NCBI GenBank assembly: GCA_019058365.1
Contig: JAHPZE010000024.1
Location: forward strand, 1-64,000
From: Promethearchaeota archaeon
Lineage (GTDB): Archaea > Asgardarchaeota > Lokiarchaeia > Sigyniarchaeales > SOKP01
Length of the DNA: 64,000 nt
Direction of reading: 5' to 3'
The notes beneath the pieces were generated by a model that had not been told where the DNA came from, did not search any database, and saw nothing but the letters and a program-made list of their open reading frames with translations. Position 1 is the stretch's first letter; every line of letters begins with the position of its first letter. The position numbers were made by a program, and so were the translations under genes. Of this stretch, positions 43,820-59,771 are shown in pieces.

Positions 43820-46000
43820 ATGGCTAAAAAAGATAGAGATAAAAAAAAGAAAGAAACAAGACCAACGGCGCGAATGGGTTGGGGTAAGGAAGAAGCTGAA
43901 GAAGAAATCGTTGCTGAGGGATTGAAAAGAAAAGATATGGACACTGGTCGTGTCGAATTAATCGATCGAGACAGTTCGACTCCGGTTATTGAGACTTACG
44001 ATCAAAACACAGGAAAACTTGAAGGAAGCATCTTATTGAAAAATAGAAATAGAGAAGGCTTATTAGCATTGGTTAAAATTATTGAAGAAGTAGACGTAAA
44101 ACAAGACCATGATGCTAACATTAAGACATTTACGCATAAAGGAAAATTAAACATTGAAAATCCTAGTACTATTGATAGATTATGGGATATTGATGTTTCA
44201 CTTGATAATATTGGTAGCACTGATTTGAAATCAAAAGATATTTCAATACAAGAATTAGGTACAGAGGAACCAGATAATATTAACTCAAGAGAATTTCGAA
44301 TAACAAAGGATATAAAAAATTTATTACTTGTTAAAGAGTTTATTTGTACTCTTCCTAATGCGGATGATGTATTGAATATTAACGATATTGAGAAAGAGTT
44401 AGTAAAATTAAAGGATAAAAAAAGCGGAGTTCCCTCTAAACCATCTAAAAAAGAACCTGAAACCAAAAAGGAGGAAGAAGAGGAAGAAGATAAGGAAGAA
44501 GATAAGGAAGAAGATGAAGTAGGTGATACATGGGGGGATGGTGGAACTCTAGTTGAAACAGGATTAGAGTCTTTTGGAATCTCGATTGATAGAGAAAATG
44601 TTGTTCACTTCGCAATTGCTCTTAGAAGTTTGTTTGATAAACCTGTATCCAATATTAAAGTCGTAAAAAATATTCCAGATGATTTTAAAAATCCCGTAAT
44701 TGTAGATACTACTGATGGAAAAGCTAATATTGAAGGAAAGCAAATAGTCTGGACAATGGATAAATTAGCTCCAGAACATACAGTGATGTTGAAATTCACA
44801 TGCAACATTATGGTTACCGATATTATTAAAAGACGAACAGGAACAATTGAGGTTACTTATCAAAGTGCATCTTCTTTTGCTGAAGGATTAAATATAGGTA
44901 AATTTGATGCTTATACTAGAAATAAGTTCTATGTCGATACGGTCGAAAGAGATGAAGAACCAGGTATTTTTGATTGCAAGCTTGTATTTGATAATTCTTC
45001 GGAGTTTATCATACAACTCTTCAATGCGGATGTGTATTCCCCAGAGGATGAGTCAAAAAAATTTGTTGATATTGACCCAAATGATGTACCTTTATTGCCA
45101 AGTGGCGCTCAATGGCACTCAATAAAGTGGGAGTTTCAGAGTGAGGAGTATCCTACGTTTAGGAAGAAATTGGAATTTCGAGTAATGCCGGATTTTCAAA
45201 CAATCGTAAATGGAACCGCTTCTCTTTCAGATGTTATATTAGAAATTGGAAGTATCACTGGAGTAATGTCATACAACTTAACTGAAGTTCCGACTTACCG
45301 TCCTAAAGATGTTATCGCCACAATTAAAGTAGTTAATAATGGTTCAGCTCCTCTAAATGAGATAGCTATTCTACAGCATACTTTCTCAGACGAATATCAA
45401 CCCCCAAAAGCAAATGAGGTAAAGTTATTATGGGACGGGGAAGAAGTTGAAGTATCTGCGGCTGCAGTAAGTTTTGAAGATAAAGAATTTAAGATTAATC
45501 TTAAAAATCTAAAAGACAGTAGCACTGGTATGTTTAAACCAGAATCAACAATGGAATTTGAATATCCTATTCATTGTGTAAATCCTGCACGTGAATCCAC
45601 TTTTGAAACTGAAATCATATATCTCGCTAATACTTTTCCAATAAGTCAAGAGTTAGAATTCAAACCGGAAGTTCCTGTAATTAAAGCAATGCACATCAGA
45701 AGGAAATTTCGTGTTGGAAAAGAGATTGCCACAATTGGAGACCTTGGACATTACAGAATTATATTAACGCTTGAAAACATTGGTGAGTCTAAATTACATC
45801 ATTTAGTGCTTTTAGATAAAGTTCCTGATTCGTTTGAATATGGTACTTATTCTATGACACCAGAAATAACAGATGAAGTAGGAGAAGATACCTTAAAATG
45901 GGATATTGAAACTTTAGAAGTCGGCGAAAAATTAGAAATCACATATGAAATAACGGGTACAGGTAAATATAGCCCATCTGATGCCCAATTAGCGCTTTAA
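43820..46000 (+). CDS. Cytoplasmic beta-sandwich protein with mu-adaptin/DUF11-like modules
   Basis: 726 aa, no signal peptide; segments LRSLF...NIKVVKNIP...GKA...IVWTM and LENIG...LLDKVPDSF...LKWDI..L..GEK.EITY. Confidence 0.75.
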   Translation: MAKKDRDKKKKETRPTARMGWGKEEAEEEIVAEGLKRKDMDTGRVELIDRDSSTPVIETYDQNTGKLEGSILLKNRNREGLLALVKIIEEVDVKQDHDANIKTFTHKGKLNIENPSTIDRLWDIDVSLDNIGSTDLKSKDISIQELGTEEPDNINSREFRITKDIKNLLLVKEFICTLPNADDVLNINDIEKELVKLKDKKSGVPSKPSKKEPETKKEEEEEEDKEEDKEEDEVGDTWGDGGTLVETGLESFGISIDRENVVHFAIALRSLFDKPVSNIKVVKNIPDDFKNPVIVDTTDGKANIEGKQIVWTMDKLAPEHTVMLKFTCNIMVTDIIKRRTGTIEVTYQSASSFAEGLNIGKFDAYTRNKFYVDTVERDEEPGIFDCKLVFDNSSEFIIQLFNADVYSPEDESKKFVDIDPNDVPLLPSGAQWHSIKWEFQSEEYPTFRKKLEFRVMPDFQTIVNGTASLSDVILEIGSITGVMSYNLTEVPTYRPKDVIATIKVVNNGSAPLNEIAILQHTFSDEYQPPKANEVKLLWDGEEVEVSAAAVSFEDKEFKINLKNLKDSSTGMFKPESTMEFEYPIHCVNPARESTFETEIIYLANTFPISQELEFKPEVPVIKAMHIRRKFRVGKEIATIGDLGHYRIILTLENIGESKLHHLVLLDKVPDSFEYGTYSMTPEITDEVGEDTLKWDIETLEVGEKLEITYEITGTGKYSPSDAQLAL
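44481..44516 (+). repeat. 12-bp tandem repeat x3 encoding an acidic linker (EEDK)n
   Basis: aggaagaagata aggaagaagata aggaagaagatg. Confidence 0.8.
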
Positions 46001-46145
46001 TATAAAATTAATATTTTTTATTTTTTTATTTTTTTTTTTTACAATAATAGTTTAATAATCTTACAGATAAGTATTAAATGAATAAACAATGAAATTTAAT
46101 TTAATTACTATTAATTTCTATAATCATAAATAGTTCTGAAAACCT

Positions 46146-47816
46146 ATGTTAAGAAAACGTTATCAGCTAAATTGGATGTTTGAATGTCCAGATGCAGTAT
46201 TAACATGTTCTATTTTGAAATGTAAAGACAAAGATTTTCTTGTATTTGGTGGACATGATAAAACTCTTTATCTAATGGATGAGGAAAATAATATACTTGA
46301 TGAACGGGTTTTTGATGGATGGTGTCGCTGCACTTATCCAATTGATATAGATGGAGATGGATGTGATGAGCTATTAGTAGGAGCTGGCGATGGAAATTTT
46401 ATGGTTATGAAATTAAATATAGAAAAAACCAAACTGACTGGATTGATGCGGTACAAAGCCTCCAAGAGGATAAATTGCTGTATCGCGGGAGACTTCACTC
46501 AAGATGGGAATATTGAAATGATTTTTGGGAGTGAAGATAAAACACTTAAAATTTTCGATGATATTAAAGCAAAAGAACCAAAATATACATTTTATTATGA
46601 TTCTTGGGTTACAGCTTGTACATTAGGATATTTAAAATTACCAGATCTCGATGAACCTATTAACGCATTATTAGTTGGAACTAAAAATGGGTTGGTTCAA
46701 TTAATTCAATTTAAAGAAAACATGCCAGATATTACTTGGCAGAACAATTTTAATACTCAGATTAATGATATCAAAGTTGGAGATGTTATTAATGATGGGT
46801 TTAATGAGATCGTATTAGCTACTGATGATTCATTTATTAGGATTTTAAATTGTAAAGGTGAACTTATTAAAGAGATTGAAATAGATGAGGGACGTCCAGT
46901 TTCATTATTAATTGAAGATATTGACGGCGATAATGCAAAGGAAATTGTTGCTGGATGTGCAGATGGTTCTTTAAAAGTCTTTCATAATCAATCGTTAAAT
47001 TCTCAAGATTTTGAGTTAAAATGGAAGACTAAGGTTGCGTCATCGATTAAAAATGTATGCTATATTTCAGGAAAAGAACAAAATTTAAAGCATATTATAT
47101 TTGGAGGTTATGATCGTAGAATCAGAAATGTAACTGATTTTGAATGGGGGCAAAAAGAAATACTTGATATTCCTCAAAACATTCAAATCCCCAAAACACA
47201 AACAAGTAAAAAAGAGGATTTAATTGAGCAAATAGCTCAAATAAAAGATGTTCCAACAAATTTAAGAGAATATATTTTTAACAGCTTGCAAGAAAAGGGG
47301 CATTTAAAAGATTTAATGGATGAATTATCAGAATTAGGGTATTCAGAGGATGAGATATTAGAAGAATTCACACTATTAAAAACACAGAAGTCAACCGTTT
47401 ATGAAAAGATTACATTTCCAGTTTGGAGTTTACCTGAAGAAGAAACGCAGAAAGAAATTCCTGAAGAAATTAAAGCAGAAATTGTAGTTAAGGTACAACC
47501 AAAACCTAAAGTACAACCATTAGTTATTGAAAAACCAGTAGAACCTATAAAGGAAAAATTACGAGCTGCTCTTGAACCTGAGATTACAAAGCCTGTTTCT
47601 AAAGAAATAGTAAGTATTAGTGGGTCTTTAGAAGATACAATTATAGCTTATCTAAGGGAAGAAAAAGTTGTTGAAACAAAGGCTCAATTTATTAATGATA
47701 TCCAAGAGAAAGGATTCTCTAACACTCAAATTGAAAAGGAAATTACTTTATTAAAGGACCAAGGTAAAATTCAATACTCTCGGGCTAAACCGAAGGGTTG
47801 GAGTTTAGCTAAATAA
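46146..47816 (+). CDS. FG-GAP/VCBS-type beta-propeller protein with C-terminal winged-helix-like domain
   Basis: Repeats DIDGDGCDELLVG, DFTQDGNIEMIFGSED, DVINDGFNEIVL, DIDGDNAKEIVAG; no signal peptide. Confidence 0.82.
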   Translation: MLRKRYQLNWMFECPDAVLTCSILKCKDKDFLVFGGHDKTLYLMDEENNILDERVFDGWCRCTYPIDIDGDGCDELLVGAGDGNFMVMKLNIEKTKLTGLMRYKASKRINCCIAGDFTQDGNIEMIFGSEDKTLKIFDDIKAKEPKYTFYYDSWVTACTLGYLKLPDLDEPINALLVGTKNGLVQLIQFKENMPDITWQNNFNTQINDIKVGDVINDGFNEIVLATDDSFIRILNCKGELIKEIEIDEGRPVSLLIEDIDGDNAKEIVAGCADGSLKVFHNQSLNSQDFELKWKTKVASSIKNVCYISGKEQNLKHIIFGGYDRRIRNVTDFEWGQKEILDIPQNIQIPKTQTSKKEDLIEQIAQIKDVPTNLREYIFNSLQEKGHLKDLMDELSELGYSEDEILEEFTLLKTQKSTVYEKITFPVWSLPEEETQKEIPEEIKAEIVVKVQPKPKVQPLVIEKPVEPIKEKLRAALEPEITKPVSKEIVSISGSLEDTIIAYLREEKVVETKAQFINDIQEKGFSNTQIEKEITLLKDQGKIQYSRAKPKGWSLAK

Positions 47817-48263
47817 TTATTCTTGAGTTTTTTTTATAAAAAAATTTAGTAGTGTGTCATTAAAATACTCAAATTGATTTAATTGTGTGAAATCTACTCC
47901 ATTATATTTTTGAATAAACAATTGAATCACGGGATCAACTTTTTCAAAAAACTTCCTAACGAGTTTATCAGATTTCTTTTTACTCTTATCAACTAGCCCA
48001 TATAATATAATTGGTTCTTTATCATGATTATCTTCTGATTGGATTTCAGATATTTTAAAGATAAATAGGGTATTCCCTGATTCTAAATATTCTAAAGAGC
48101 TTTTATTAAATGCAGTGTTCACGAAAGCATTAATTGCAGAAATAAATGCCCCTCTCAGATCTTTATTCACTCCGCTTTCTTTTTGAGCAGGTAATTCTTT
48201 AAAAATTTGATTTACAAGTACAAATCCCCGGAATACAAAACCAATTTCGTAAAGTTCCTTCAA
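47817..48263 (-). CDS. Longin-like small protein
   Basis: Pattern ELYEIGFV.RG.VL...DL.GAFISAINAF......LEYLE.GN..FIF matches longin topology as recalled. Confidence 0.6.
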   Translation of the reverse strand: MKELYEIGFVFRGFVLVNQIFKELPAQKESGVNKDLRGAFISAINAFVNTAFNKSSLEYLESGNTLFIFKISEIQSEDNHDKEPIILYGLVDKSKKKSDKLVRKFFEKVDPVIQLFIQKYNGVDFTQLNQFEYFNDTLLNFFIKKTQE

Positions 48264-52897: not shown

Positions 52898-54916
52898 ATG
52901 AGTTACAAGCGAAAGAAACTATGGGAACCCTCAAACGAATGGATTAAAAATGCAGAAGCAACCCGTTTTATTGAATTTATCAATAAGGAATACAATCTTA
53001 ATATAAAAGGAGGGAAAGACCTATATAGATGGTCAGTTGAAAAAATTCCTGACTTTTGGGAAGCCATGTGGAAATTTTCAGGGATTATAGCATCCAAACC
53101 GTATTATAAGGCAGTAGAAGACTTAAGTGTTTTTCCAGGTACTAAATGGTTTCCTGGGGCAAAATTAAATTTTGCAGAGAATCTTCTGAAGTATAAGGAT
53201 GATCAACTAGCATTTATATTTCAAGGCGAAACTAAAGTATCCAAGCAAATAACCTATGCTGAATTAAATAAAACTGTATCTCGCTTAGCTAAATCTCTCA
53301 AGGAGGTTGGTGTTAAAGTTGGCGATAGAGTCGTTTCATACATCCCTAACTTAATTGAAACTCCCGTTGCCATGCTTGCCGGAGCAGCTATCGGTGCAAC
53401 TTGGGCTTCGTGTGGTGCTGAACTCCAACCTAGTGCCGTTATCGACCGATTTAGTCAAATTAAACCTAAAATTCTCTTTACCGTAGACGGTTATTATTAT
53501 CGAGACCAAGTATTTGATATCCGAGAGAATGCAAAGGTGGTGGTTGATGCCATTCCTTCCATAGAAAAAGTAATTGTGGTAACTTATGCCAGCGAAGGAA
53601 AGTGCGATGTGAGTGAAATTCCAAAAGCAGTCAATTGGGAAGATTTTATCTCTAAAGAGGAGGATCCACCACTTGAATTTGAACAACTTCCTTTTGATCA
53701 CCCCATTTATATAATGTTTTCAAGTGGTACTACGGGAAAGCCCAAATGTATGGTTCAAAGCGCAGGCGGGGTGTTGATTAACCATCTTAAAGAATTGATT
53801 CTCTCTACTGATTGCAAACGAAGTGATGTGCTTAATTATATTACCGCGCCCTCATGGATGATGGTGTAAGTATTCCTTATACCAGCCAAAATGTGGAACT
53901 GGCTTATCAGTGCCTTAGGCGTGGGCGCAACAATATTCTTATATGATGGAAATCCACTATACCCAGATCCATTAAGCTTTTTTGAATTGATTGAAAAGCA
54001 TAAAATCTCGATATTTGGTACTAGTGCTGCATATATCCACTATTTAATGGGACTTGGTGTTAAACCAGGTGAGAAATATGATCTGAGTGGTTTAAGGGAA
54101 ATATCACAAACAGCATCAACTCTTTCTCCAGAAGGTTTTGAATACGTTTATCGTGAAATTAAGAAAGATCTCTTTTTCAATTCTATTAGTGGTGGAACAG
54201 ATATTAATGGATGCTTTGCAGGAGCAATTCCAATTCTTCCTGTTTATTCTGGTGAATTGCAAGGGCGTGCATTAGGAATGAAAGTAGAAGCGTACAATGA
54301 TAATGCAAAACCTGTTGAAGATGAACAAGCAGAACTTGTATGTGAAGCACCAGCTCCTTCTATGCCCGTGTATTTCTGGGGAGATGATGATAATTTGACA
54401 AAATATAAAGCAGCTTATTTTGATCACTTTAAAGATACAGGAAAGAATGTATGGAGACACGGAGATTATATAGTAATTCATAGTGACACAGATGGAATTA
54501 CTTTTTGGGGACGCTCTGATGCTGTTTTAAAGCCCTCAGGAGTAAGAATTGGTACTGCTGAAATATATAATGTAGTCGAACAACTTCCTGAAGTTTCAGA
54601 CTCATTGGTAATTGGTCAACAATGGGAAGGTGATATCCGCATTGTTATGTTCGTTCTATTAAATAAGGGCTATGAATTAACAAATGAATTAAAAACAAAA
54701 ATACAACAGACTATTCGAGAAAAAACAAGTCCAAGACATGTGCCAAAGTTAATATATGCTGCACCATCTGATGGGATTCCTTACACTTTTAGTAATAAGA
54801 AAGTTGAAATTGCAGTAACTAAAATTATACATGGTATGGAAGTAGCTAATCGTGGAGCCCTCCGAAACCCAGAATCCTTGGACTTCTATATGCAAATGAA
54901 AGATAAACTTAAATAA
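52898..54916 (+). CDS. aacs: Acetoacetate--CoA ligase (AACS), interrupted by a 30-nt putative BHB intron; spliced product 662 aa
   Basis: Two ORFs (52898-53869, 53891-54916) in the same frame; WFPGAKLNFAENLL, MFSSGTTGKPKC, WMM|WNWL, SISGGTD, WRHGD, GRSDAVL...GVRIGTAEIY. Confidence 0.92.
53861..53890 (+). other. Putative bulge-helix-bulge mRNA mini-intron (30 nt)
   Basis: atggtgtaagtattccttataccagccaaa contains an in-frame TAA and a 9-bp internal stem; BHB bulges UGA (53859-61) and AAA (53889-91); excision restores SWMMWNW. Confidence 0.8.
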
Positions 54917-54924
54917 ACAAAATT

Positions 54925-56034
54925 TTAATTCTTTTTTTTTAATTTAAAACATTTTTTTTTTCTATATAAGCTATCTTCATAATTAGTAAGCATTTCTCGC
55001 ATAAGATCCATCCCAAGATAGATATTATAACCAATTCCTTCCCATTCACTATTAGTTTGCCAAATTTTATAGGGTATTTTAAAATAACATTTAACTTGTT
55101 GGATAAAATTGATGCTTCCAGATGTGATTACAGTTGATCCTACCTTACCATCACCATCATAGTATCCTAAAATAAAAGCTAAATACAATTCTCTCGAGGC
55201 TAATCTTGGCAATTCAATAAATCTAGATTTTTGATTTCCAACTATAAAACCATGTCTAATTAAAGTATTTGCAAATTCATCATTAACAAACCGAATCCTC
55301 ACATAATCAGTTAATTCTCCTTCTCTTCTAATTTCGATTTCTTTATGCTCAAGATTAAAACCTATGACATTAGCAAATTTATCTAATAAATCTTTTTCAT
55401 CATCTTTATGCAATTCAACTCCAAATCTGATATTATTTCCATGTTCAGAAAGCCAGGCTTCTGCGAATAACCATCCTAACCAATAAGCTTTTTCTTTAGT
55501 ATCGATATATTCGAAATAATCAATTTTTAAGCATGGATGCCATTTATATATACCATATATCGATTTCTTTGGATTATTTAAACTCATATATTTATTAAAT
55601 AACTCAGAGATTTCTCTGGGGACTCTGCATAAATTTTTATCGATCTGAGATTTATACTCTTTAAGTGTTTCGATGGAGATTATGTAATTTGGATTTTGCT
55701 TTATCTGATCTTTCTTTTTTTTAATATGAAACCTTGTTTGCCCTAGAACAATACTTAATTGTTCATCTGTTAATTTATCATTCAATAATTTTTTTTCTGG
55801 AATATAATTAACAATTAATCTCTTTAAATCATTTATGAAGCTTAATGTATCATAAATGTTAGAGTTTTTTGAAAATACATTAAGATTATTATCAAAATTT
55901 TCATTAATATAATATGAATTAATTCCTTTTTTAAAATAGGCAAATTGTTTACTGTTAGAACAATTTCTTTTAATCATATGCTTTTTAGAGCAATATATGT
56001 CATTAGTTCTTATAGTGGATTTATTTTTAACCAT
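54925..56034 (-). CDS. Free-standing two-motif LAGLIDADG homing-endonuclease-like protein
   Basis: YFEYIDTKEKAYWLGWLFAEA (motif 1) and LAFILGYYDGDG (motif 2) with an N-terminal extension. Confidence 0.85.
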   Translation of the reverse strand: MVKNKSTIRTNDIYCSKKHMIKRNCSNSKQFAYFKKGINSYYINENFDNNLNVFSKNSNIYDTLSFINDLKRLIVNYIPEKKLLNDKLTDEQLSIVLGQTRFHIKKKKDQIKQNPNYIISIETLKEYKSQIDKNLCRVPREISELFNKYMSLNNPKKSIYGIYKWHPCLKIDYFEYIDTKEKAYWLGWLFAEAWLSEHGNNIRFGVELHKDDEKDLLDKFANVIGFNLEHKEIEIRREGELTDYVRIRFVNDEFANTLIRHGFIVGNQKSRFIELPRLASRELYLAFILGYYDGDGKVGSTVITSGSINFIQQVKCYFKIPYKIWQTNSEWEGIGYNIYLGMDLMREMLTNYEDSLYRKKKCFKLKKKN

Positions 56035-56268
56035 AACTGAAATCTTAGAGAATTTTTAGTTAATCTTTTAAAATTGCTATATGTAAAACGAATATATTTT
56101 TATCTTTATATATCTTAATAGAGTAAGGATTTTGTCTTTATATATGATTTAAAATTATAAGAGAATCATATTTAATAATAATAGACAAACACAAAAAAGG
56201 AGAAATTAATCCAATTAGCTTTGAAAAACTGAAAGTAATATATTTGAGTAATAGTTTATCTTTCTTTC

Positions 56269-59200
56269 TCAAATTTTTTCATTATATTCAATAATAACAA
56301 CACTACCTTCAATTTCTAATAAAGAAATTCTTTCTTCTTTTATACCAGCACATAAAAGGGCATAAACTATTCTATAATTAGTAAAAAAGTCGCGTTCAAT
56401 TTCTCTGGGTGAAGATAAATCAATTTTAGTTTTATTCTCAGAGAAGATTTTAAAGGAGTTGATAACCTTTTCAGCAAGTACCTTATTTATTTCAATTTTA
56501 TTTAATTTATGTTTATCTTTAAATTGATTAAAACTCAAGTATATTTGAAACTTGTCTCCTATTAGGATTTCTTCATTAAAACATTCAGCATTGAACAATT
56601 TATGGTATGCAGAATTTATATTTTTTAAAATTTGAAAGCCGTTTATTATTAAATTCCTAATCTCTTCTTTTTTTTCTCGAAAAAATTCTTGAGTATTATT
56701 ATGACGTTCAGGATTAGCAATTGTTACTAAATCATTTAAAAAAGAAATACAAAGATCCTTTTTGCTTTTTCCAAAAATGAATTGAAAAATATTATCCCAA
56801 TTATAAGCATTATTAATGATATATTTATAATGATATCTTTGACTTAGATATAGTATATTTTTGTTGGAATAGCTTATTGGAAGGCCCTTTCTGACATATT
56901 TTTCTTCCTCCTTATCCAAGTCCGACTGAATTTTAGGTGGCAGTTTTGATTTCCAGATATCTCCATATAATAAGTAAAAAATATTGTAAATGAAAATTCG
57001 TAATTTTGTCTCGAAAAATGTCCAAAGTTCACCAACGCATTCCTTGTAAAGATGTAACCAGTAAAATGCTCTAATTCTATTAAACTTCTTTTTATCTTCA
57101 TTAGTCAAACCTTGTGTTCCTATTATGATAATTCCATTGTATCTTATCCACTTTTCTATTTTTTTTATCAATGCTATTATACCACTAACAAATGCAGCTA
57201 TAAAAATAGTTTTATCTTCATTTGAAAGATTTAGGCTCTCTTCACAAAATTGTAACTGGTGAATATACCTCCTAAATACTTCATTATCTTTCCAAGTGTA
57301 TAAAAATTCATCAAATAGTTCTTTCTGAGAAGAGATCTTTTTTTCTTCCCCAGATAGTTCATATAAATAGTTTAAAACGAATTGAAATACGACTTTTGAT
57401 TTCTCTATTATTTCTCCAAATGAGATTTTTGAATTTGCATATTCAATAACTTGAGAGAAAGGATTCGCTATATTTTTCTTTAACTTGTTTAGATTTTTTT
57501 GCTCTGTTGGATTACCTCTTGCGATCCCATCTAATCTTGACAAGGTATTTCTTGAATAATCAATAAAATTTAAACCTTTTGGCTCATCTCCACTCAGAAT
57601 CTGATTAATATAATATTTAAGAGTAAACTTGAAAGTATTTACCACATCTAAACAAAAATTTCTTAAATCATTAGAAAGTCCCCAAATGAAATCATCTTTT
57701 ATCTTATTTCTGGCAATTAATTTGTACTGATTAAGGATTGTAAAGAGTTCAATATTATTTTCAAAAAGATCTTCCCCTTCCTTTACTATTTTTTTTTCTT
57801 GTATTATACATAATAGTTCCGCTATATTATTTATAACATCTTTTGAAACACTTAATTCTTTCTTTAATGCATTCAATTTTGCGTGCAAATCTTTCCGTTC
57901 CGTTAATTTCTGATAAATTGGCTCGAATGAGTCTTGATCTAAATCGTAATTAATGGATAATAAACCAATATTTTGACTAGTACTTGATATTCTGTCCTGA
58001 AATTCTTCTATGAAGGTTCTAAAGGGAATTTCACGAGGATAACTTCTTTGTATAATATTCATTAAATGCTCAATATCTGTATAAGAAATATATTTTGTAA
58101 AATCATAGGGTTCTTCATTTGAAAAGGCTTCTAACCTTCTTCTAATTAGTTCGAAAGCATCTAAAGGGCCAATAGAGTCAAACGGTTCTTTTTGGAAGAT
58201 TGTACCTTCATAAGCAGAATTTTCTCTAAGTTCTTTTATCCATAATTTTGAACCTGCAATAAATAAGCTTACTTTTATATTTTCTCTAAGGATCTCTTCG
58301 AAAAAGTTTTGGAGTCCCTTTAAAAAATCAAGAGCTAAATTAGCTTGATTATCATATTTATGTAACCCATCCAAATATACAACAAATCCTTTGGATGAAG
58401 AATTATCCAAAAAAATTTTAAAAAGCTGTATTATCTCATCTGAAGAATTCCCTGAAATATAGCTCCTGGGATCGATACTAGTCCATCTGATTAACGCTTT
58501 ATATAATGCAACATATAATTTTTTAAAAAAGAGATTTCTTATTTGAAATATTGATTGAGAGGCATCTAACATAATTTGCAGAGGTATTATTTTTGAATTA
58601 ATAAAAAAAGGATAAAGATAATCAAATAATGTTGTTTTCCCACATCCAAACTCCCCATAAAATAAATAAGACTTTCCTAACAATTCATCTGGATATTCTC
58701 TAACTAGCTGAGTATATTTCCTAAATATAGGTAGCATAACTACTATCTTTTCATAGTATTCTTCCTCGATGTATGTTAGACCATAAGCAGTTGGAAAAGG
58801 ATTCCGTTCCAATCCAATAATGCGCCACCAAGGTTGGACATCTCTTAATTTTCCTAATTTTCGCTTCTCTATATATTTATTAGATAACACTAATGGACTT
58901 ACGCTTAATTCTTCATCAATTCTCGAACGAAATTCATCTAATTTTTTTTTTTCCCTTAAAATTTTCTCTTCAATCCTCTCTTGAACTTCTATGATAACCT
59001 CTTCTTTTGCTTTTTTAAGCATAGCAATGTTCTCAATCTCTCCACTACTTAATTTTTCTTTGATTTCTTGGAAAAAACTCTGAGAATCTGGATCATTCGA
59101 TTCTATTATCTCGTTTTGGTAATGAACAAATTCTCGAATTACAGTTTTTTCAGATAAAAAAGGGATTTTGTTAATTATAATTTCAAGATCTTCTTGATTC

Positions 59201-59403
59201 GAGATCTGATTGGAATCTACTAAATATTGAATAATTTCGTGAGCTAAATTCGCCCAGTTAGGATTGCCATATTTTTTCTTATGTTTGTCTATAAAAAATT
59301 TTGTTTTCCGTTTCTTTAAATCATCTAAATTTACTTTATTTGTAATTATCCTAGAATAGTTTTTTTTAATAAATTCACGAATAATTTCTCTTGTATCTGT
59401 CAT
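56269..59403 (-). CDS. Large P-loop NTPase with C-terminal Swt1/HEPN-like domain (possible defence protein)
   Basis: GLERNPF, Walker A YGEFGCGKTT, Walker B FVVYLDGLH; C-terminal FETKLR.FI...YG..W...NWD.IF..IFG...NPERH. Confidence 0.75.
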   Translation of the reverse strand: MTDTREIIREFIKKNYSRIITNKVNLDDLKKRKTKFFIDKHKKKYGNPNWANLAHEIIQYLVDSNQISNQEDLEIIINKIPFLSEKTVIREFVHYQNEIIESNDPDSQSFFQEIKEKLSSGEIENIAMLKKAKEEVIIEVQERIEEKILREKKKLDEFRSRIDEELSVSPLVLSNKYIEKRKLGKLRDVQPWWRIIGLERNPFPTAYGLTYIEEEYYEKIVVMLPIFRKYTQLVREYPDELLGKSYLFYGEFGCGKTTLFDYLYPFFINSKIIPLQIMLDASQSIFQIRNLFFKKLYVALYKALIRWTSIDPRSYISGNSSDEIIQLFKIFLDNSSSKGFVVYLDGLHKYDNQANLALDFLKGLQNFFEEILRENIKVSLFIAGSKLWIKELRENSAYEGTIFQKEPFDSIGPLDAFELIRRRLEAFSNEEPYDFTKYISYTDIEHLMNIIQRSYPREIPFRTFIEEFQDRISSTSQNIGLLSINYDLDQDSFEPIYQKLTERKDLHAKLNALKKELSVSKDVINNIAELLCIIQEKKIVKEGEDLFENNIELFTILNQYKLIARNKIKDDFIWGLSNDLRNFCLDVVNTFKFTLKYYINQILSGDEPKGLNFIDYSRNTLSRLDGIARGNPTEQKNLNKLKKNIANPFSQVIEYANSKISFGEIIEKSKVVFQFVLNYLYELSGEEKKISSQKELFDEFLYTWKDNEVFRRYIHQLQFCEESLNLSNEDKTIFIAAFVSGIIALIKKIEKWIRYNGIIIIGTQGLTNEDKKKFNRIRAFYWLHLYKECVGELWTFFETKLRIFIYNIFYLLYGDIWKSKLPPKIQSDLDKEEEKYVRKGLPISYSNKNILYLSQRYHYKYIINNAYNWDNIFQFIFGKSKKDLCISFLNDLVTIANPERHNNTQEFFREKKEEIRNLIINGFQILKNINSAYHKLFNAECFNEEILIGDKFQIYLSFNQFKDKHKLNKIEINKVLAEKVINSFKIFSENKTKIDLSSPREIERDFFTNYRIVYALLCAGIKEERISLLEIEGSVVIIEYNEKI

Positions 59404-59591: not shown

Positions 59592-59771
59592 CACGTATTA
59601 AGGCTTGTAGTTCAAGCACCTCCAGATGGTATTCCCTATACATTTAGTAATAAAAAGGTTGAAATAGCAGTGACCAAAATCATCCACGGCATGGAAGTAG
59701 CCAATCGTGGAGCTCTTAGAAATCCTGAATCCCTGGATTACTACATGGAAATGAAGGATAAGCTACAATAA
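59592..59771 (+). pseudogene. Orphan duplicate of the AACS 3' end (copy 2)
   Basis: HVLRLVVQAPPDGIPYTFSNKKVEIAVTKIIHGMEVANRGALRNPESLDYYMEMKDKLQ*, 50/59 aa identical to 54737-54916 with many synonymous differences. Confidence 0.95.

Follow-up and report, generated by a model that had tools for sequence, protein, structure and literature searches.

In the collaborative homing described for phages, a free-standing nuclease gene adjoins a gene whose conserved motif is interrupted by an ORF-less intron; nuclease and intron travel together, and self-cleavage should be prevented by the intron. The pair formed by F-CphI and the psbA group I intron of cyanophage S-PM2 is one such case (Zeng et al. 2009, as summarized in PMC6083498), and further cases come from T3/T7-like phages and the ICP1 terminase (PMC10448857). 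Intronless homing by the phage enzymes SegF and SegG and trans homing by MobE involve an optional gene between conserved genes and co-conversion across the neighbour (PMC2988022, PMC2790892). Archaeal rRNA BHB introns can encode monomeric LAGLIDADG enzymes such as I-DmoI and I-Tsp061I. In coding regions, the cbf5 pre-mRNA BHB intron of Crenarchaeota (16-44 nt; PMC2738675) is the only example of its kind according to PMC7714728; most cbf5 introns have a relaxed BHB motif, which is reportedly cleaved by hetero-oligomeric EndA (PMC2738675). Asgard tRNA introns were the subject of a 2026 preprint, which identified no general arrival route and called the question open (10.64898/2026.10.13.758758). 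Our search for literature on Asgard mRNA introns and archaeal free-standing LAGLIDADG pairs, whose scope took in few subscription papers, retrieved nothing relevant.

Here we analysed a 64,000-nt stretch (the window) of a Loki-type Asgard genome of the Promethearchaeota (G000; 4.7 Mb, 29.5% GC), in which the acetoacetate-CoA ligase (AACS) gene carries a 30-nt insert and faces a LAGLIDADG gene. The arrangement resembles the phage pairs, including an intron that would block self-cleavage. It differs from known collaborative homing in host, nuclease family and intron class: the pair lies on a cellular archaeal chromosome, the nuclease is of the LAGLIDADG rather than the DHHRN or T5orf172 type, and the intron would need host proteins instead of being a self-splicing ribozyme. 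The pairing is also repeated at many host genes. Cleavage by the AACS-linked nuclease is predicted from sequence comparison, and membership in collaborative homing is what we propose. Like the cbf5 intron, the insert is a short, relaxed-BHB element in a coding region, where cuts after the second bulge base restore the frame; unlike it, the AACS element is found in Asgard archaea, sits in a metabolic gene, is patchy, laterally spread and linked to an external nuclease, and its splicing is predicted. The combination of a BHB intron with a monomeric LAGLIDADG fold recalls the rRNA introns, except that the nuclease gene lies outside the intron, 1 kb off, and the host is an mRNA. The SegF, SegG and MobE model fits those members of the nuclease family without intron neighbours, whereas in the AACS-linked clade protection appears to derive from the intron and not from point changes.

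Architecture of the AACS locus and its mini-intron

The AACS gene occupies 52898-54916 of the plus strand and is interrupted by an in-frame, TAA-bearing insert of 30 nt at 53861-53890. Deletion of the insert yields one continuous frame of 662 aa, and the TIGR01217 profile matches the two halves consecutively (4-318, then 319-650). Exon 1 (52898-53860) has its best matches mostly among intron-less alleles, varying along the exon, and exon 2 (53891-54916) is 96-99% identical to the allele on contig C17 of genome G094 over the first 120 codons and 83-93% identical thereafter. The sequence-only reading had placed a two-motif LAGLIDADG gene convergent with AACS, and this was confirmed: the 369-aa ORF (54925-56034, minus strand) terminates 8 nt away from the stop codon of AACS, and 1035 nt separate it from the intron. 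Its upstream region (56035-56154, minus strand), a probable promoter, is followed by the gene of a 1044-aa AAA-type ATPase (56269-59403, minus strand), which is absent from other nuclease-bearing loci and separates the nuclease from a relic second AACS 3' end (codons 604-662; 59592-59768, plus strand; 80% DNA identity to the working end). Elsewhere in the window, positions 43820-48263 hold a DUF11 protein, a BBS2/BBS7-like beta-propeller and a small protein without assigned family.

The insert folds into a 9-bp hairpin stem flanked by the 3-nt bulges UGA and AAA, and the borders that restore the frame are exactly those produced by cutting behind the second bulge base on either side. The central helix (53855-58 with 53885-88) has three Watson-Crick pairs, invariant across intron-plus alleles, and a fourth position that is A.G here, as in 20 of 22 alleles; against the strict 4-bp central helix of a BHB, the motif is relaxed. 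Among 135 genomes of the host family, the intron was found at 23 loci in 8 genera and 75 loci are intron-less; the insert always measures 30 nt, within a search pattern that admitted gaps of 18-46 nt only. The stem is 96% paired (190/198 stem cells) with double changes at five of the nine pairs, and the in-frame TAA is retained in all 23 inserts. The host encodes two EndA-domain genes and RtcB. On the basis of fold, frame and conservation, we infer that the insert is an mRNA intron cut by EndA and rejoined by RtcB. Intron-plus alleles also retain two extra exon helices within window positions 53845-53930, one a long-range helix of 7 bp and the other a hairpin of 4 bp; they might form a tRNA-like scaffold for EndA.

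The neighbouring gene encodes a predicted homing endonuclease

The two LAGLIDADG helices of the 369-aa protein read WLGWLFAEA (E192) and ILGYYDGDG (D295), with both acids kept. The match to Pfam PF14528 is weak (18.7 bits, under the cut-off). In the AlphaFold model (pLDDT 76.5), low-confidence residues 1-57 precede a helical domain at about 60-155 and a nuclease domain at about 175-360. Foldseek aligned this model with bI3, I-AniI, I-Tsp061I, I-DmoI and I-SceI at probability 1.0 and E about 1e-5, with modest TM-scores of 0.4-0.55 by target. The first motif (LFAEA) had earlier been considered atypical and the activity uncertain, a doubt that the family alignment removes: LFAEG is the consensus, the acid position holds D or E in 19/19 aligned members, and the AEA form occurs in most AACS-linked orthologues, so that a defective motif 1 was rejected. 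Motif 1 of I-SceI likewise ends in Ala. All five full-length orthologues have open frames with dN/dS values of 0.10-0.28, and the stops flagged in the orthologues G094b, G042 and G012 proved to be natural ORF ends and were rejected as breaks. By these measures the gene is intact and under purifying selection, and its product is predicted to be a site-specific monomeric LAGLIDADG homing endonuclease. A maturase or regulator that aids splicing or expression of the intron-bearing gene would fit the top fold matches, which include the bI3 maturase and I-AniI, and the extra helical domain. Such a role is nevertheless extremely improbable: the catalytic acid is conserved in each motif, the majority of intron-plus alleles are maintained in the absence of the nuclease, and the nuclease is patchily present together with its decay products.

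Co-occurrence of the intron and the nuclease

All close orthologues of the nuclease adjoin AACS, and none of them was found elsewhere in the genomes or the metagenome set. Among AACS loci with enough flank, an intact nuclease stands beside 5 of 18 intron-plus and 0 of 62 intron-less alleles (Fisher p=4e-4; because the genomes are kin, p-values here and below overstate the significance). With remnants included, the counts are 7/18 and 2/62, and the other 11 of the 18 intron-plus loci bear no nuclease trace. In a metagenome set of previously unused sequences, where only loci that include the intron site were scored, 10 of 11 distinct scorable nuclease-linked loci were intron-plus against a background of 23%. 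Some of these ten have broken frames, and one (L480) is of the same type as G012, with the nuclease on the opposite side of AACS. The single exception (L472) is an intron-less allele beside a nuclease that is missing residues 1-118 and keeps both motifs. The pairing of intron and nuclease holds across 56-92% nuclease protein identity and on either side of AACS.

As a linkage control, we examined 775 AACS alleles of similar frequency. One of them is common to all five intact-nuclease loci, and none is common to seven of the nine loci with any nuclease trace; because of this control, the pattern is not simple linkage. The co-occurrence across genomes, which had been suggested as a check on the sequence-only reading, was borne out in both sets. 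The near restriction of the full-length nuclease to intron-plus alleles, as read from these sequences, points to joint spread.

Movement of the intron, its flank and the nuclease

The intron is scattered over the tree of the AACS 5' region, where 19 changes are needed for 22 tips. Synonymous identity among intron-plus alleles of different genera reaches 0.61 near the site versus a null value of 0.44, and equals the null far 5' (0.50 vs 0.50). The flank haplotype common to these alleles covers codons about -3 to +19 (53845-53935, plus strand) and is a candidate target region with possible exon helices; part of the sharing may reflect selected RNA structure or exon pairing, not co-conversion.

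Joint transfer is clearest between this genome and G094a: upstream of the intron their identity is 0.64-0.84, immediately downstream it rises to 0.96-0.99, and the two nucleases are 91% identical. The shared block begins within about 16 nt of the intron, the last upstream difference lies about 17 nt before the splice site, and the block ends near 56154, just past the nuclease and short of the AAA-ATPase gene. The earlier proposal that intron and nuclease spread together is thus supported by lateral spread of the intron and by this transfer of the intron together with the 3' exon and the nuclease. Apart from G000 and G094a, nuclease-bearing loci are not united in 3'-exon trees; in older nuclease-bearing pairs, the exon between intron and nuclease is not grouped by nuclease, and the tract is clear only in G000/G094a. 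In G012, where the nuclease lies upstream of AACS, the 3' flank of the intron is of the intron-less type. Nuclease remnants of the same clade occupy the same slot in distant genera. Loss can be read as well: G118 combines a nuclease remnant with a gene that resembles the intron-plus gene of G104 except for a patch of 30 codons derived from an intron-less allele, as expected if the intron was lost following nuclease decay. Three intron-less alleles (L221, L222 and L226, in G112, G113 and G123) retain the intron-plus 3' flank haplotype, which suggests precise intron loss.

Break repair had also been thought to drag in a new AACS 3' end and cargo. The 3' exon was indeed co-transferred in G000/G094a, but nuclease-dragged cargo was rejected, since the block stops before the AAA-ATPase gene and 3' relics also occur without the nuclease. 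Duplicated AACS 3' ends are present at 8 of 15 intron-plus and 10 of 55 intron-less loci, nearly all of the latter without a nuclease, so the nuclease is not required for relics. Up to three relic 3' ends are stacked at one AACS locus, and 5' relics occur in G001.

The main rival explanation is ordinary intronless homing, in which the enzyme has its target at another place, either the AACS 3' end or the junction taken up by the nuclease gene, and the founding haplotype merely carried the intron along. Many intron-free host genes are linked to members of the nuclease family, often with gene-end duplications left behind, and the AACS relics begin around codons 570-634 and not at the intron. However, markers nearer the nuclease than the intron show no linkage to the nuclease, the block shared with G094a begins at the intron, and the pairing persists with the nuclease on the opposite side and across the range of protein identities given above. 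We consider this explanation improbable.

Another account reverses the order: the intron would be a shrunken nuclease-bearing BHB intron, or have spread otherwise, and free-standing nucleases would have been recruited later to the safe intron-plus site without being its spreader. Turnover of this kind has been proposed for phage loci (PMC10448857). Most intron-plus loci are without a nuclease, and at G104 the AACS slot holds a different, chimeric LAGLIDADG of 637 aa (L185:586-2499, contig C78), whose upstream region and first ~50 codons are like the nuclease studied here and whose remainder is of the type found on contig C46 of G000; the intron-plus AACS contig of G104 overlaps C78 at 97.5%. 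On the other side stand the same-clade remnants at one slot in distant genera and the uniform length of the insert, exactly 30 nt wherever it was found, though within the gap range the pattern allowed. Cutting at the intron site would still be required, so this account, which we regard as unlikely, differs mainly in the order of events.

Nuclease-intron pairs at other genes

A paralogous LAGLIDADG gene lies directly upstream of EF-1alpha in the same genome (G000:C52:29216-32263; L253, L342). A 32-nt BHB insert interrupts the GTP-binding motif GHIDHGKST of EF-1alpha. Three of 135 genomes (G000, G001 and G005) have this intron, and the nuclease is found in the same three, in one of them as a remnant. 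At a third locus (G000:C46:47619-50567; L356), an acyl-CoA dehydrogenase (acd) gene with a 30-nt BHB-like insert precedes the gene of a 482-aa LAGLIDADG that belongs to another subfamily. The acd intron is present in 5/135 genomes, and no such nuclease was found within 1.5 kb of it in the other four. Thus, of the four free-standing LAGLIDADG genes found in this genome, three lie next to a gene with a mini-intron (AACS, EF-1alpha or acyl-CoA dehydrogenase). Around 80 other loci of the family, inserts were found in 10 of 128 nuclease-adjacent and 2 of 179 non-adjacent genes (p=0.005); insert-bearing genes there include PFK, alpha-mannosidase, thiolase-like and aldolase-like genes, and a further insert lies in the CobA P-loop. 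Most family members have no intron-bearing neighbour, and several introns have no nuclease nearby (CoA-transferase, cold-shock protein).

Further inserts and paralogues were noted on the way. About ten genomes have, near AACS, a family III CoA-transferase-like gene with inserts of 30-34 nt at two sites (L063, L067, L068, L170, L184, L200, L217, L231, L233 and L243), and L244 and L215 have one insert each, in the cold-shock gene and one other gene, mostly with no nuclease nearby. Ab initio BHB scans of the genome gave 153-348 candidates, mostly false; from this noisy output, five likely mini-introns in conserved motifs were picked by eye (G000 C9:32934, C6:17691, C36:26637, C9:585 and C27:12823), with hosts that comprise AMP phosphorylase, a mutase B12 subunit, a GHMP kinase, an aldolase-like gene and one unassigned gene. 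A third paralogue of 613 aa with an N-terminal cysteine-rich motif follows a protease-like gene (G000:C32:11964-15627); the in-frame stop beside it was rejected as an intron, being a single point nonsense codon.

These pairings also bear on neutral coincidence, according to which the AACS flanks are recombination-driven accretion hotspots, mini-introns are common, and chance and descent produced the association. Flanking genes do differ in almost every genome, which makes both sides of AACS an accretion hotspot, relics are present without the nuclease, and the region holds other introns. Against this stand the out-of-sample result, the linkage control and the three of four LAGLIDADG genes beside intron genes; coincidence is strongly disfavoured and, in our estimate, very unlikely.

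Discussion

Collaborative homing on an archaeal chromosome is probably the best explanation, at the level of sequence, of the AACS pair, whose anatomy, conservation, restricted co-occurrence, tracts and repeated pairings were directly observed. In the proposed mechanism, the free-standing LAGLIDADG enzyme would recognise a long site that spans the WMM|WNW codons of intron-less AACS, and the 30-nt insert would split this site and protect the carrier allele. Removal of the insert from the mRNA by EndA and joining of the ends by RtcB would keep the AACS enzyme in production. When a carrier meets an intron-less allele, the break would be repaired from the carrier, by which the intron and a short flank are copied, and sometimes the whole stretch from the intron through the nuclease gene; the tracts themselves are seen, and cleavage is their putative cause. 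The nuclease would later decay or be lost, a stage recorded in the remnants, leaving solitary introns that could then be lost too.

The AACS locus offers a defined and testable route for an mRNA intron: a single enzyme of 369 aa is involved, the candidate target is short, and alleles with and without the intron supply natural substrates. Within the literature searched, one coding-region BHB intron, that of cbf5, has been reported for archaea (PMC7714728). If the proposal is true, collaborative homing would extend from phages to a cellular genome and to non-self-splicing introns, and genes that appear split in Asgard annotations might have spliced transcripts instead of being pseudogenes. We also lean, with somewhat less assurance, towards a chromosome-wide system in Loki-type Asgard archaea, in which LAGLIDADG clades, each with one host gene, spread protein-spliced mini-introns into conserved mRNA motifs. 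Such a system would give the closest prokaryotic relatives of eukaryotes a DNA-level route by which to acquire mRNA introns that do not splice themselves.
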